DNA of 64,000 nucleotides. It comes from Dehalococcoidia bacterium (lineage in GTDB: Bacteria; Chloroflexota; Dehalococcoidia; Lucifugimonadales; UBA3495). Location of the stretch: assembly GCA_965116565.1 (NCBI GenBank), contig OZ220699.1:483589-547588 (forward strand), read 5' to 3'. The notes beneath the pieces are model-generated. The model was not told where the DNA came from and ran no database searches. It was given only the letters and a program-made list of their open reading frames with translations. A program made the position numbers and the translations under genes. Each line of letters starts with the position of its first letter. Within the stretch, counting starts at the first letter, position 1. Positions 20,468 through 55,848 of this stretch are shown in pieces.

Positions 20468-21262
20468 CTATGCGTCGGGCTTCACGTTCTCAACCAGGGT
20501 ACGCAAGAAGCCGACTGCGTCCGGTACGTCCCGGGCGATGCTCTCCTTGTCCAGAGGCAGGTGTTCGTGGCTGTAGAGGGCCGCGCCGCCGAACTCGGTC
20601 AGGTAGCGGTGGTTCTCGCCGGGAACGGGCGCGTCCGGCGGCAGTATCCCGTGCCGTTTGATCAGTTCGGTGATGATGCGCAGGTTGTGGCCGTCGCGTC
20701 CGCTGGTGGGATACTCGAATCCGTGGGCGCCCAGGACGGCTTTGTACGCGTTTTCCAGGGCGTTCTGGCCCATGCGGCCAATCTGCTTGTCGTCGGCATT
20801 GGCCAGGATACCCGCGTTTGCCATGGTTTCCAGTAAATCGGCCGCGCCGGTGGCGTCTTTCATTTTGCCCTCTACATCGTCCCAGTCGATGGACTCTTCG
20901 GGCAATTCAGTGTTTTCCTGGGGCAAGATTGGGGCTCCCTGCTTGGCGATGGAGTTGGCGAGGTTGTTGCGCAGGTGGCGGCGGCCGGCGAACTCGTCCG
21001 CCGTCATGCAGATCACGTCTATGCCGGAGGCTTCCGGCAGGCTCGCCTTCTGCAGCGCGCGGGCGCGCTCGCGCAGATCATCCAGCCACTCCTCCGTTGG
21101 GGAGTGCTTCTTGATGATCAGGACGTCGATGTCGGAATCGGGCCGATGGTCGCCGCGGGCGCGCGAGCCGAACAGGATGGTCTGCTCCGGTTCCGCCATT
21201 CGGTGGACCTCGCGGGCCACTGCAACGGCGCGCCGGTCCGCTTTGATAGCGTGGACGGTCAT
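20468..21262 (-). CDS. Fused nucleotidyltransferase (MNT) - HEPN protein
   Basis: LFGSRARGD...DSDIDVL, then QNALENAYKAVLGAHG...GRDGHNL; start uncertain (21262 or 21307). Confidence 0.8.
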   Translation of the reverse strand: MTVHAIKADRRAVAVAREVHRMAEPEQTILFGSRARGDHRPDSDIDVLIIKKHSPTEEWLDDLRERARALQKASLPEASGIDVICMTADEFAGRRHLRNNLANSIAKQGAPILPQENTELPEESIDWDDVEGKMKDATGAADLLETMANAGILANADDKQIGRMGQNALENAYKAVLGAHGFEYPTSGRDGHNLRIITELIKRHGILPPDAPVPGENHRYLTEFGGAALYSHEHLPLDKESIARDVPDAVGFLRTLVENVKPDA

Positions 21263-21307: not shown

Positions 21308-21448
21308 CCGCTCATGGTGGGCCTGTCGAACCATCCGTCGATTGCAATGGCATCCGTCGACAGGCTCAGGATGAGCGGGAAGGCGGTCAGGATGATCGGG
21401 AAGGCGATCAGGGTGAGCGGGAACAGGGTCAGGATGAGCGGGAGGGGA
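21308..21448. repeat. Inverted REP pair (CCTGTCGAACCA / TCGACAGGCTCAGGATGAGCGG) followed by four 21-bp tandem derivatives
   Basis: Units at 21365, 21386, 21407, 21428, consensus nTCAGGaTGAgCGGGAagg. Confidence 0.8.
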
Positions 21449-22249
21449 TCAGGACCCGAGGAAATTTTTGACGACGCTGAGGAACTCGTCGGTTTTTTCG
21501 ATGTGGGGGTTGTGGCCGCAGTTGTCGAATACCGTGAGACGGGAGTTGGGGATGGACTCGTTGTAAACCTGGCTGGCGCTGACGGGGACGATCTCGTCTT
21601 CCCGGCCCCAGATGATCTGCGTGGGCAGACGCTTGAGTCTATGCAGCAGGTTGGGCAGGCCGGGATAGTGCATGTAGGGGCGCCAACTGAGCCGGCAGGC
21701 CTCCTCGCGGGCGATCTCCCACGCCTCCGACAGCTCGGGGGAAACTTCGTCGGGGCAGACGTCGAGAAACTCGGGAGTGCTGGCGGTGTCGTAGAAGCCG
21801 GCGGTGCAGAACTCCTTGGCGACGGCGAGGAACATGTCGTAGATCTCACCCTCCGGCGGACGAATACCGGCGGGGCTGACCAGCACCAGCTTGTTGAATG
21901 TGTCGGGGGACATCGCAGCCATTTCGGCGGCGAGCCAACCCCCGATGGAAAAGCCCATGAGGTTTGCGCCCTGGAGGCCGAGGTCGTCGATGGCTTCGAG
22001 ATACCAGCCGGCCAGGTCGCGCATGTTCATGATCCATTCCTGGCGTTCGGTTGCGCCGAAGCCGGGGTGGGACGGTATGTAGAGGGAGTAGTCCTGGGCA
22101 AGGGCGTCGTAGCAGCGGAGCCATGCCCGGTGTCCCAGTTCGTCGTGCAGCACGAGCAGGGGCGTTCCGCTGCCGCCTTTGACCATCTGAAGGCTGACGC
22201 CGGCTGCCTCCACGAATTCTTCCGTCCATGCTTGCGCGCCTGTCGCCAT
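21449..22249 (-). CDS. Alpha/beta hydrolase
   Basis: HPGFG, GFSIGG nucleophile elbow, WGRED, CGHNPH. Confidence 0.88.
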   Translation of the reverse strand: MATGAQAWTEEFVEAAGVSLQMVKGGSGTPLLVLHDELGHRAWLRCYDALAQDYSLYIPSHPGFGATERQEWIMNMRDLAGWYLEAIDDLGLQGANLMGFSIGGWLAAEMAAMSPDTFNKLVLVSPAGIRPPEGEIYDMFLAVAKEFCTAGFYDTASTPEFLDVCPDEVSPELSEAWEIAREEACRLSWRPYMHYPGLPNLLHRLKRLPTQIIWGREDEIVPVSASQVYNESIPNSRLTVFDNCGHNPHIEKTDEFLSVVKNFLGS

Positions 22250-33167: not shown

Positions 33168-33172
33168 CGCCG

Positions 33173-33388
33173 ATGCCAGGCTCGTTGGGCGCCATGGTTG
33201 CGGGTTTCAAGTCGGCAGCCACCAGGCGAATCAATACTGCACGCAATGCTCCCGGCGCACCGGTGTGGCAACGGAACCATTACGAGCGCGTTATCCGCAA
33301 TGAACGCAGCATTGACCGAATTCGCCAATACATCCGGCACAATCCGCTCAGGTAGCCGGATGACCCGGACAATCCGGCTAACCGGTAA
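33173..33388 (+). pseudogene. C-terminal remnant of REP-associated tyrosine transposase (RAYT, Y1)
   Basis: SLGAMVAGFKSAATRRIN...VWQRNHYERVIRNERSIDRIRQYIRHNPLR*(TAG at conserved W)PDDPDNP; HUH region absent. Confidence 0.85.
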
Positions 33389-54276: not shown

Positions 54277-55848
54277 TCAAACGCCGGCTTTGATGAACTC
54301 GGCCACGCGCTCGCCGATCATTATCGTGGTGGCGTTGGTGTTGGCGCGGATGACGTCGGGCATCACCGAGGCGTCGGCGACCCGCAACCCCTGCACCCCG
54401 TGGACCTGGCCGTGCTGGTTGACCACGGCCATGGGGTCGCTGTCGGGACCCATCTTGCAGGTGCCGGCGATGTGGTGCTGGGTGTAGGCGTTGCGCAGGA
54501 TCCAGGCGTCCAGCGCGTCGTCGCTGACCAGGTCGGCGTCCACCGGGTTGAGCCGCTCGACGATGAACTCTTTGAATGGGGACTCCTGTGCAATCTCCAG
54601 GGCCTTGCGGATGGCCTGGCGCATGCGCTGGCGGTCGTAGGGGTCGCTGAATAGCTGGTAGTCCAGGTCGGGCTGCACGGCGGGGTCGGTGGACTGGAGC
54701 GAGAGTCGGCCGAAGCCCACGGCGTTCTGCAGGCCGACGCTGAGTCCGAAGTGGAAGCCCTCGCCGTCGTAGGACACGCTGGCCGGCCGGTGCTCGCTGG
54801 TCATCAGCGTGGGCGTGATCTGGAAGTCGGCTTTGGTCGGCGAATCGTCGGCGCTCCAGCGCAGGCCCACCTGGATGTTGGGCGCGAAGGTGTCGGGCTC
54901 CTCGCCCTCGCCGCGGAACAGGATATACGCGGCGGGATGGTCGCGGAAGTTCATGCCCACGCCGGGAAGCTCGTGGTTGACGGGGATTCCCATCTCGCGC
55001 AGGTGGTCGGCCGGCCCGATGCCCGACAGCAGCAGGATCTGGGCGGAGCCGATGGTGCCGCTGCACAGCACGATCTCGTTGCCCTCGACGGTGAAGATCT
55101 CGCCGCCGCTCTCGACCTCGACGCCTACCGCTCGTGGTGAGCCTGTCGAACCATCGCCATCGAGGATCACACGGCGGGCGTGGATGTTGCCGCGCACGGT
55201 GAGGTTCAGGCGATGGCGGGCGGTGTTGAGGAAGGTGAGCGAGGTGCTCATGCGCACGCCGTCGATGTTGTTCATGGGGCGCGGCGAGATGGCGGTTTCG
55301 CAGTCCGGCGCGTTCTGGTCGGGGTGCTCGGGGATGCCCAGGGCGATGCAGGCATCGTAGAAGGCGGTGTTGAAGGGCAGCCAGTCGTCGCGCCTGGGGC
55401 GGCGCACGGGCAGCGGCCCCTCGGAGCCGTGGAAGTCGTCGCCGCCGAAGTCCCAGTCGTTCTCCAGCTTGCGGAAGAAGGGCAGGCAGTCGGTGAACTT
55501 CCACTCGTCGTTGCCCCACTCGGCCCACAGGTCGTAGTCCTCGGGGATGCCGCGAAACACCACCTGGCCGTTGATGGACGACGAGCCGCCCATGGCCTTG
55601 CCGCGCGGGATGACCATGAGTTCGTCCTGCGACGGGTTGGCGCGGCCGCGCAGGTCCCAGCTGTGGGGGCCGTAGGCGGAGAGCCAGGTGTTGTTGCCCT
55701 GCTTGAGGTCCTGGGGCAGATGCTCAAAGTCGGGATAATCGGGCCCGGCCTCCAGCAGGATGACCGACTTGTCGGTCTGCTCGGACAGCCGCGTGGCCAT
55801 CACACAACCGGCGGAACCGCCGCCAACCACGATGTAGTCATACTTCAT
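54277..55848 (-). CDS. GMC oxidoreductase (choline dehydrogenase-like)
   Basis: VGGGSAG, PRGKAMGGSSSING, HIAGTCKMG, VADASVMP, ANTNATT. Confidence 0.95.
   Translation of the reverse strand: MKYDYIVVGGGSAGCVMATRLSEQTDKSVILLEAGPDYPDFEHLPQDLKQGNNTWLSAYGPHSWDLRGRANPSQDELMVIPRGKAMGGSSSINGQVVFRGIPEDYDLWAEWGNDEWKFTDCLPFFRKLENDWDFGGDDFHGSEGPLPVRRPRRDDWLPFNTAFYDACIALGIPEHPDQNAPDCETAISPRPMNNIDGVRMSTSLTFLNTARHRLNLTVRGNIHARRVILDGDGSTGSPRAVGVEVESGGEIFTVEGNEIVLCSGTIGSAQILLLSGIGPADHLREMGIPVNHELPGVGMNFRDHPAAYILFRGEGEEPDTFAPNIQVGLRWSADDSPTKADFQITPTLMTSEHRPASVSYDGEGFHFGLSVGLQNAVGFGRLSLQSTDPAVQPDLDYQLFSDPYDRQRMRQAIRKALEIAQESPFKEFIVERLNPVDADLVSDDALDAWILRNAYTQHHIAGTCKMGPDSDPMAVVNQHGQVHGVQGLRVADASVMPDVIRANTNATTIMIGERVAEFIKAGV
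55128..55155. repeat. REP copy embedded in frame in the GMC gene
   Basis: 26/28 identical to intergenic 21308-21335; encodes DGSTGSPRA. Confidence 0.85.

Follow-up and report, generated by a model that had tools for sequence, protein, structure and literature searches.

A repetitive extragenic palindrome carried in frame at a predicted turn of a GMC oxidoreductase in an uncultured Dehalococcoidia bacterium

The 64,000-nt stretch of Dehalococcoidia DNA analysed here, hereafter the window (contig OZ220699.1 of assembly GCA_965116565.1, positions 483,589 to 547,588 of the forward strand), encodes on its minus strand, at 54277..55848, a 523-aa GMC-family flavin adenine dinucleotide (FAD) oxidoreductase. 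Within this open reading frame (ORF), at 55128..55155 on the same strand, lies a tract derived from a repetitive extragenic palindromic (REP) element of the same genome. A repeat copy stands inside an ORF, it is read in frame and homologs free of the insert exist; the tract is thus an in-frame palindromic insertion of the kind known from the Rickettsia palindromic elements (RPEs). We consider it very probable that the GMC gene captured a REP in frame and that the insert was tolerated, translated and inherited. According to this reading, a REP hairpin segment of 27–28 nt would have been copied into the flavoenzyme gene, overwriting three host codons (AAC CGG GCC) with nine REP codons, and the end of the REP would have supplied Arg-Ala, so that the conserved RAVGVE strand was rebuilt from repeat DNA. 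The outcome would be a Gly/Ser/Thr/Pro-rich beta-hairpin turn, six residues longer, in the FAD-binding domain, kept, translated and inherited in a gene under purifying selection.

The original prediction, made from the letters of the window, had seen in the tract an intergenic repeat absorbed by the enzyme, on the grounds of a 26/28 identity with an element at position 21308. A pattern search gave the same figure for 55128-55155 against 21308-21335, and these are the only two sites in the window at 3 mismatches or fewer, a threshold at which none of 100 shuffled sequences contained a match. On the coding strand the tract reads GAT GGT TCG ACA GGC TCA CCA CGA GCG, as had been proposed, and it corresponds within the GMC ORF to residues 232-240 (DGSTGSPRA, D232-G-S-T-G-S-P-R-A240) plus the first base of V241. 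The codons ACA, TCA, CCA and CGA had been called atypical for this gene, and codon counts agree: the G+C content at third codon positions (GC3) is 0.924, the four codons are used 0/23, 0/19, 1/34 and 1/31 times outside the insert, and A-ending codons make up 2.5% outside the insert versus 4/8 inside. A residual hairpin in the coding copy was not significant (z about -0.4).

The host belongs to the GMC family on several counts: both Pfam domains are present (GMC_oxred_N, 2.8e-42; GMC_oxred_C, 4.6e-37), GGGSAG stands at residues 9-14, H459, N503 and N505 are invariant in 58 homologs, and the fold matches. The enzyme resembles MftG and choline dehydrogenase and scores under both curated cut-offs. 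For MftG (TIGR03970 of NCBIfam) it reaches 358.2 bits versus a cut-off of 387.45 and hence falls short of the equivalog, the name under which some database homologs are annotated.

The repeat belongs to a family dispersed over the 3.87-Mb single-contig genome. Its consensus is CCGCTCATGGTGAGCCTGTCGAACCA, often extended by CGAGCGG into a palindrome, and its 18-nt core, GGTGAGCCTGTCGAACCA, occurs in 58 copies at 1 mismatch or fewer (0 in a reversed-pattern control) and in 73 copies at 2 or fewer; a looser loop core gives 152 copies versus 25 in its control. The 33-nt consensus folds into a hairpin (-8.1 kcal/mol, z -2.65). One common loop is enclosed by either of two stems, TGGT/ACCA or TCCT/AGGA, and so the stem changes are compensatory. 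The reference copy of the original prediction is part of an intergenic dimer at 21308..21379 (+), in which a TGGT-stem unit (21308-21335) is joined to an inverted CCT-stem unit; as DNA the dimer forms a hairpin of -23.2 kcal/mol (z -4.68) that was equalled by 0 of 200 shuffles. It is flanked by minus-strand genes, one starting at 21262 and the other ending at 21449, and a long stop-free frame that spans it has no Pfam match. An Rfam identity for the dimer was considered and rejected, as there was no match near any gathering score. Directly after the dimer, at 21379-21445 (+), the REP arm GATGAGCGG recurs in a tandem array of about three ~21-nt units (GGTCAGGATGAGCGGGAAGGC and variants). A GTAG tetranucleotide stands at one end of some genomic copies (3445649, 211080, 274663 and 3609481, for example GTAGTCCGCTC...GAGCGGACTAC) and is missing from most. 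The majority of copies carry a stop in the GSTGSP* frame, and a handful lie in ORFs with family matches, counted without a full gene call. A short imperfect palindrome forming a stem-loop, in many dispersed copies whose numbers vary between relatives, is what defines a REP; among 25 congeners of one genus the copies range from 0 to 255 per genome, REP-rich congeners (G013, G023, G022, G004 and G007) contrasting with G002, G006, G009, G011, G012 and G021.

What did the site look like before the repeat arrived? Orthologs at 83-97% identity, retrieved by a search of 5.8 billion proteins, come in two lengths, 523 and 517 aa. Three of them (P0001, P0002 and P0019) read RRVILD(G/R)DGSTGSPRAVGVE, and P0004 and P0006-P0018 read LDGNRAVGVE; the latter, found in most orthologs, is the form ..L.(D/E)G.RAVGVE that had been expected of GMC enzymes. 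Among 43 orthologs at 88-95% identity from named assemblies, 36 are empty, the REP allele is found in 5 and a second REP allele in 1, and 1 has a non-REP form; the source assemblies are metagenome-assembled genomes of uncultured Dehalococcoidia and the SAR202 cluster. The original prediction had staked its reading on orthologs from genomes free of the repeat lacking the loop. Six REP-free congeners all hold the ortholog, at 90-95% identity, and the REP loop is present in 0 of the 6: at the turn five read LDG(N/D)RA(V/A)GVE without insert and the sixth has an unrelated four-residue extension, DGSGPDGN. One of these congeners, G002, holds the gene nearest to that of the window in the ortholog tree. 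Outgroups at 66-77% identity are likewise empty, except for six loci with an unrelated, single-copy insert of seven residues. Since the outgroups and the solved GMC structures have the short turn, the empty state is ancestral.

At the DNA level the junctions can be read to the base. The empty site is GAC GGC AAC CGG GCC GTC GGC and the filled site is GAT GGC GAT GGT TCG ACA GGC TCA CCA CGA GCG GTA GGC: the host codons AAC CGG GCC (N-R-A) are overwritten by a REP whose CGAGCG end encodes R-A once more. Relative to empty orthologs the site has gained a net 18 nt, or six residues (GSTGSP), within the range of about 5-7 first estimated. The event is a replacement and not a pure insertion, which refines the first reading; no target-site duplication was seen between filled and empty junctions, where 9-12 host bases are replaced. 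In the tree of the 43 orthologs the +18 allele is restricted to one well-supported 11-member clade, in which it is mixed with empty alleles, and this mixture points to close species having exchanged alleles or to lineage sorting among them. The second REP allele of the window's orthogroup, an independent one (L072), lies in a different clade, has the +15 junction that is found in other orthogroups and is sister to an empty ortholog (support 100/99). The closest DNA relative of the window gene overall is a filled ortholog (L004, 93.8%); a recombination mosaic in the window allele was considered and rejected, because it is not needed when the nearest relative is itself filled.

The same turn carries length variants that do not derive from the REP. 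In close orthologs DDGPDGK and DGSGPDGN (+4) occur (L003, which corresponds to P0003/P0005; L036, from G006; and L075), and in a clade at 69-70% identity PPAEPGQKPKA (+7) occurs in L091, L095, L098, L100, L102 and L105. We rejected the DDGPDGK allele (P0003, P0005, L003) as a decayed REP, since the similar DGSGPDGN of a REP-free genome keeps empty-type R-A-V codons and thus reflects an unrelated indel, and we rejected PPAEPGQKPKA as another repeat, since it is single-copy in three genomes. Judged from these alignments, the turn is generally tolerant of indels.

The original prediction had placed the added residues in a surface turn. In an AlphaFold2 model built on 58 homologs (mean predicted local distance difference test score, pLDDT, 86.7; predicted template modelling score, pTM, 0.91), loop 231-238 (GDGSTGSP) forms the predicted turn that links strand 223-230 to strand 239-247, and pLDDT dips mildly there (about 77 versus 91-92 in the flanks). 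In the FAD-binding domain of GMC enzymes the tip of this hairpin would be solvent-exposed. With Foldseek the whole model aligns to choline oxidase 3ljp at a template modelling (TM) score of 0.90, and in the alignment with another solved homolog, 8b7s, the gap at the insert spans exactly six residues. The model therefore puts the insert at a predicted beta-hairpin turn of the FAD-binding domain, where the fold would tolerate change, in agreement with the early placement.

That the enzyme was not broken had also been proposed, and the full-length frame, the invariant residues and the substitution rates all point this way. Filled orthologs differ by 0.19-0.32 synonymous substitutions per site (dS), and the ratio of nonsynonymous to synonymous rates (dN/dS) is 0.065-0.155. 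Over 32 coding copies the codons for G-S-P-R-A have undergone 18 synonymous versus 1 nonsynonymous changes and those for G-S-T 8 synonymous versus 14 nonsynonymous, and synonymous changes within the insert are mostly toward G or C at the third position. This substitution pattern, together with the third-position drift, suggests that the tract is translated, partly constrained and slowly adopting the codon usage of its host. We infer that the host enzyme is active and that the peptide travels in it as a near-neutral passenger.

In-frame REPs are a known kind of insertion; what is new here is the recurrence at one homologous turn across paralogs. The genome has 17 GMC paralogs, in line with the large paralog expansions known for SAR202 (PMC5395668), and 6 of the 17 carry a REP at the homologous turn. 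Five of the six have the tract (N)NT GGT TCG ACA GGC TCA CCA CGA GCG or a close derivative, which is doubled in paralog 1589810. The sixth, at C1:401583-403160 (+), holds a full 33-nt REP whose loop has the opposite orientation, read as AHGEPVEPRA. The insert at the turn of this sixth paralog is 19 residues long (GSSPNPHGSVSTAHGEPVEP) and includes a degenerate REP unit upstream of the full REP; in L005, the closest ortholog of this paralog, the insert takes the usual GSTGSP form. The genes next to the GMC genes include luciferase-like monooxygenases and amidohydrolases.

When the insert columns are left out, the paralog tree requires 4-6 changes of state. Across the genus 13 of 25 genomes contain the REP-GMC junction pattern, each at 1-6 sites; 0 of 16 genomes of other families in the order showed it, and none of the controls did. 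In a tree with the 17 paralogs the filled sites of these 13 genomes fall in 8 orthogroups, two of which are empty in the genome studied here. All 13 genomes carry REPs elsewhere as well, and none of the six REP-free congeners has a filled GMC site. An assembly artefact is unlikely, as the insert turns up in many independent assemblies. A count over 127 GMC genes (197 kb) placed 40 of 41 REP-core matches at the homologous turn, the remaining one being a 2-mismatch match at chance level; about 30 of these genes had been chosen for having the junction, and the unbiased subsets (the 17 own paralogs and 80 database loci) are equally exclusive. Comparison of these sequences indicates that GMC paralogs of the genus captured the same tract at the homologous turn at least nine separate times. 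Capture that recurs with identical boundaries at a single homologous codon in many paralogs was not found described in the literature that we compared on RPEs, REPs and miniature transposable elements with inverted repeats (MITEs). Three GMC paralogs of G017 and G018 (L021, L029 and L030) contain a doubled, in-frame 18-nt inner hairpin unit (GSTGSPGSTGSP, GSTGSSGSTSSP and GSTGLPGSTGSP), from which it follows that coding copies can still expand by one unit.

The junctions and the divergence of the inserts allow the captures to be placed in time. In 7 of the 8 orthogroups an empty GGC AAN NNN GCC (12 nt) has given way to a 27-nt tract in the same frame; the window allele has a different left junction, with GGC kept and a net gain of 18 nt. 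As far as the edge of the tract, upstream flanks remain specific to their orthogroup, and in pairs of filled and empty sisters both flanks are recipient-type to the base. Within orthogroups the inserts show 219 differences where 216 are expected at the gene-wide rate, which points to one capture per orthogroup followed by vertical descent. Between orthogroups they differ at 2.6/24 nt versus 2.4/24 among orthologous inserts, in paralogs that are 44-65% identical as proteins; inserts so nearly identical in paralogs so divergent imply that the captures far postdate the divergence of the paralogs and drew on a near-identical source. No homogenisation of inserts within genomes was detected (permutation p=0.23). 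Taken together, these features speak against both classical gene conversion between paralogs and simple transposition.

The coding copies also differ from the consensus at one position. All of them have CGA where the consensus has TGA, and CGA is the native reading of the opposite arm of the palindrome. With TGA in the frame used, every capture needed either a CGA variant or a flipped inner hairpin. By their sequence, the coding copies resemble a REP in forward orientation in which the 19-nt inner hairpin has been flipped, a picture into which the unflipped copy of paralog 401583, at the same boundaries, would fit.

Other features that might have accounted for the choice of site were examined and rejected. 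No host target motif separates the paralogs that were hit from those that never were, as all have GAS GGC AAN NNN GCC. TTCGAC is not a requirement, because the window's orthogroup and orthogroup D (own gene 72221) have CTGGAC or CTGGAG. Nor is there a context shared with other in-frame REP sites of the genome (LarC, Type ISP, terminase-like and RecG, described below), where frames and orientations differ. Ongoing homogenisation within genomes was dismissed on the permutation result given above, and the GGCTCGCC variant common to all three sites of G001 did not generalise.

Several observations weigh against in-frame capture as we read it. A change of 12 nt into 27 nt without target duplication fits no described chemistry of REP or MITE transposition. 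The consensus REP, in the frame used, encodes GSTGSP and then meets a TGA stop, and nearly all intergenic copies do likewise. No intact Y1_Tnp domain (PF01797), the mark of a REP-associated tyrosine transposase (RAYT), was found in this genome or in the 25 congeners. Several congeners are rich in REPs (255, 82 and 58 copies) and lack a filled GMC site. Finally, the strong constraint on G-S-P could mean that the peptide is not merely neutral. No known mechanism readily explains repeated capture at one turn. In our judgement the captures are most likely direct, REP-limited replacements filtered by selection, and not the product of gene conversion between paralogs. It is possible, and we put it forward tentatively, that the turn is a true hot spot for a REP without RAYT, copied in between bounds set by homology, for example by templated repair or template switching through a weak likeness of the REP ends to the G...R-A-V codons; if so, this would be an undescribed route of REP spread and of enzyme-loop evolution.

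Selection alone might produce the same distribution: REPs would land anywhere, and only those at this turn, in a linker-like G/S/T/P frame that regenerates R-A, would survive. The non-REP length changes tolerated by the turn (DDGPDGK, DGSGPDGN and PPAEPGQKPKA) accord with this view, as do the in-frame REPs that lie in linkers elsewhere, such as the LarC interdomain region and Type_ISP_C, and the fact that the other five frames give bulkier peptides or a stop. However, a 520-residue enzyme offers many surface loops, and 40 of 41 REP-core matches nevertheless sit at one turn; replacements with near-identical boundaries are not expected nine times from random landing; and the frame used is the very one in which the consensus REP has a stop. 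We therefore find it somewhat unlikely that selection acted without a preference for the site.

Less probable still, and in our view unlikely, is a single REP insertion in one GMC paralog that then spread to the others by short-tract gene conversion. This would account for the uniform junctions, with 12 nt turned into 27 nt in the same frame in 7 of the 8 orthogroups. The downstream GTN GGN GTN GAG ... GAG AGC GGC GGC, highly conserved between paralogs, could prime pairing. Filled sites more often than empty ones have GTG and GGG codons immediately downstream, and this may be a vestige of co-conversion. However, the downstream codons do not track the filled or empty state in mixed orthogroups (L020 versus own 1582977), the upstream flanks are specific to each orthogroup and the flanks of sister pairs are of the recipient type. 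Homogenisation within genomes is absent (p=0.23), the window allele has a left junction of its own, with GGC kept and +18 net, and paralogs only 44-65% identical as proteins are a poor substrate for pairing. Moreover, G005, G010, G019 and G020 have a single filled site each by pattern search. The version of this scheme in which flanks are co-converted was rejected on the same flank data and because divergence around the window insert shows no spike beyond other peaks.

An adaptive role of the GSTGSP loop, through partner contact, solubility or regulation, is very doubtful. It would agree with the ratio of 18 synonymous to 1 nonsynonymous changes at G-S-P-R-A in the 32 copies, with the persistence of the insert through a dS of 0.2-0.3 in the window's orthogroup and with the doubled versions in L021, L029 and L030. 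Against it, R-A belongs to the conserved host strand, so that the constraint is partly inherited; G-S-T is relaxed (8 synonymous versus 14 nonsynonymous); filled and empty alleles coexist in very close relatives; about half of the congeners have no filled paralog; and the peptide matched no motif or family. Chance resemblance, or an ancestral loop unrelated to the repeat, has a negligible probability given the 0/100 shuffles, the orthologs and outgroups without the loop and the foreign codon usage.

How does in-frame capture in the GMC genes compare with known systems? RPEs sit in frame in protein-coding genes (PMC10969869), and the likeness is close: a dispersed palindrome read in frame adds a peptide at fold-compatible sites, and homologs without insert exist. 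They are however about 100-150 bp long, encode a conserved peptide of their own and occur in many unrelated genes, whereas the tract described here has 27-28 nt and is found in Chloroflexota; it behaves as an RPE does without being one, since it is part of a Chloroflexota REP. The GTAG/CGTC REPs are 20-40 bp hairpins that are mostly intergenic, some lying wholly within known genes, where they have been argued to fall in linkers or loops; in two Xanthomonas species recB carries REPs at roughly the same place, and Thermomicrobium roseum (Chloroflexi) is among the species that bear them (PMC3733652). The present family shares with them the hairpin of 20-40 bp, the occurrence as singletons, dimers or clusters and the presence of intragenic copies, but differs in having the GTAG foot in only some copies, in the lack of an intact RAYT, in the recurrence across 8 paralog lineages and in the replacement of codons; neither of the last two is described in that survey (PMC3733652). 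MITE fusions (ERIC, BOX; PMC10969869) resemble it in that a small non-autonomous repeat makes an in-frame fusion, but the tract lacks the terminal inverted repeats of a parent insertion sequence (IS) and a target-site duplication and is much shorter, and so it is not a MITE.

With REPtrons, which rely on an IS200/IS605-like Y1 enzyme, the points of likeness are the REP-like hairpin and a C-terminal Y1 fragment at 33170-33355 (+) of the window; the points of difference are that no intact Y1_Tnp is present, that host bases are replaced and that there is no obvious fixed target tetranucleotide. The RAYT that marks a REPtron is missing, as Y1_Tnp is absent from all 26 genomes of the genus. The fragment is a frame ending ...VWQRNHYERVIRNERSIDRIRQYIRHNPLR that resembles the C-terminal, catalytic-tyrosine half of IS200/RAYT-type Y1 transposases. 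Its match to PF01797 is sub-threshold (E 0.038, 14.5 bits, profile positions 64-121), it lacks the HUH half and it is single-copy in the genome. From this remnant, the lineage may once have had a Y1-type enzyme.

In-frame REPs were also observed in four other ORFs of this genome. A LarC/nickel-insertion protein at C1:1367591-1369222 (-) (PF01969, 1e-104, in two stretches) has a long interdomain segment with a full and a degenerate REP, in frame (SAHGGPEPHQPAHGEPVEPRA). A Type ISP restriction-modification enzyme at C1:2191802-2195116 (+) has CCT-stem REPs in frame (ARPEPPTARPEPVEG) inside its Type_ISP_C specificity domain, where the matched stretch is ~29 residues longer than the profile. REP-derived ILRQAQDER stands in frame in a terminase-like ORF with weak Terminase_6C and AAA_19 matches at C1:3795687-3797420 (-), and REP-derived PARPEPVEG repeats occur in the N-terminal extension, possibly upstream of the true start, of a RecG helicase ORF at C1:928945-931746 (-).

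In-frame capture of selfish palindromes is one of the few routes by which new peptide segments are added to old bacterial enzymes, and the documented cases come mostly from Rickettsia and Proteobacteria. The locus described here is a clean case in an uncultured, SAR202-type member of the Chloroflexota, and it offers filled and empty alleles among near-identical orthologs, junctions exact to the base and continued selection. The turn is a permissive insertion site in GMC flavoenzymes that is of possible use to protein engineers. At least nine natural replicates, each with empty counterparts, make the long-debated spread of REPs, above all without a RAYT, testable.

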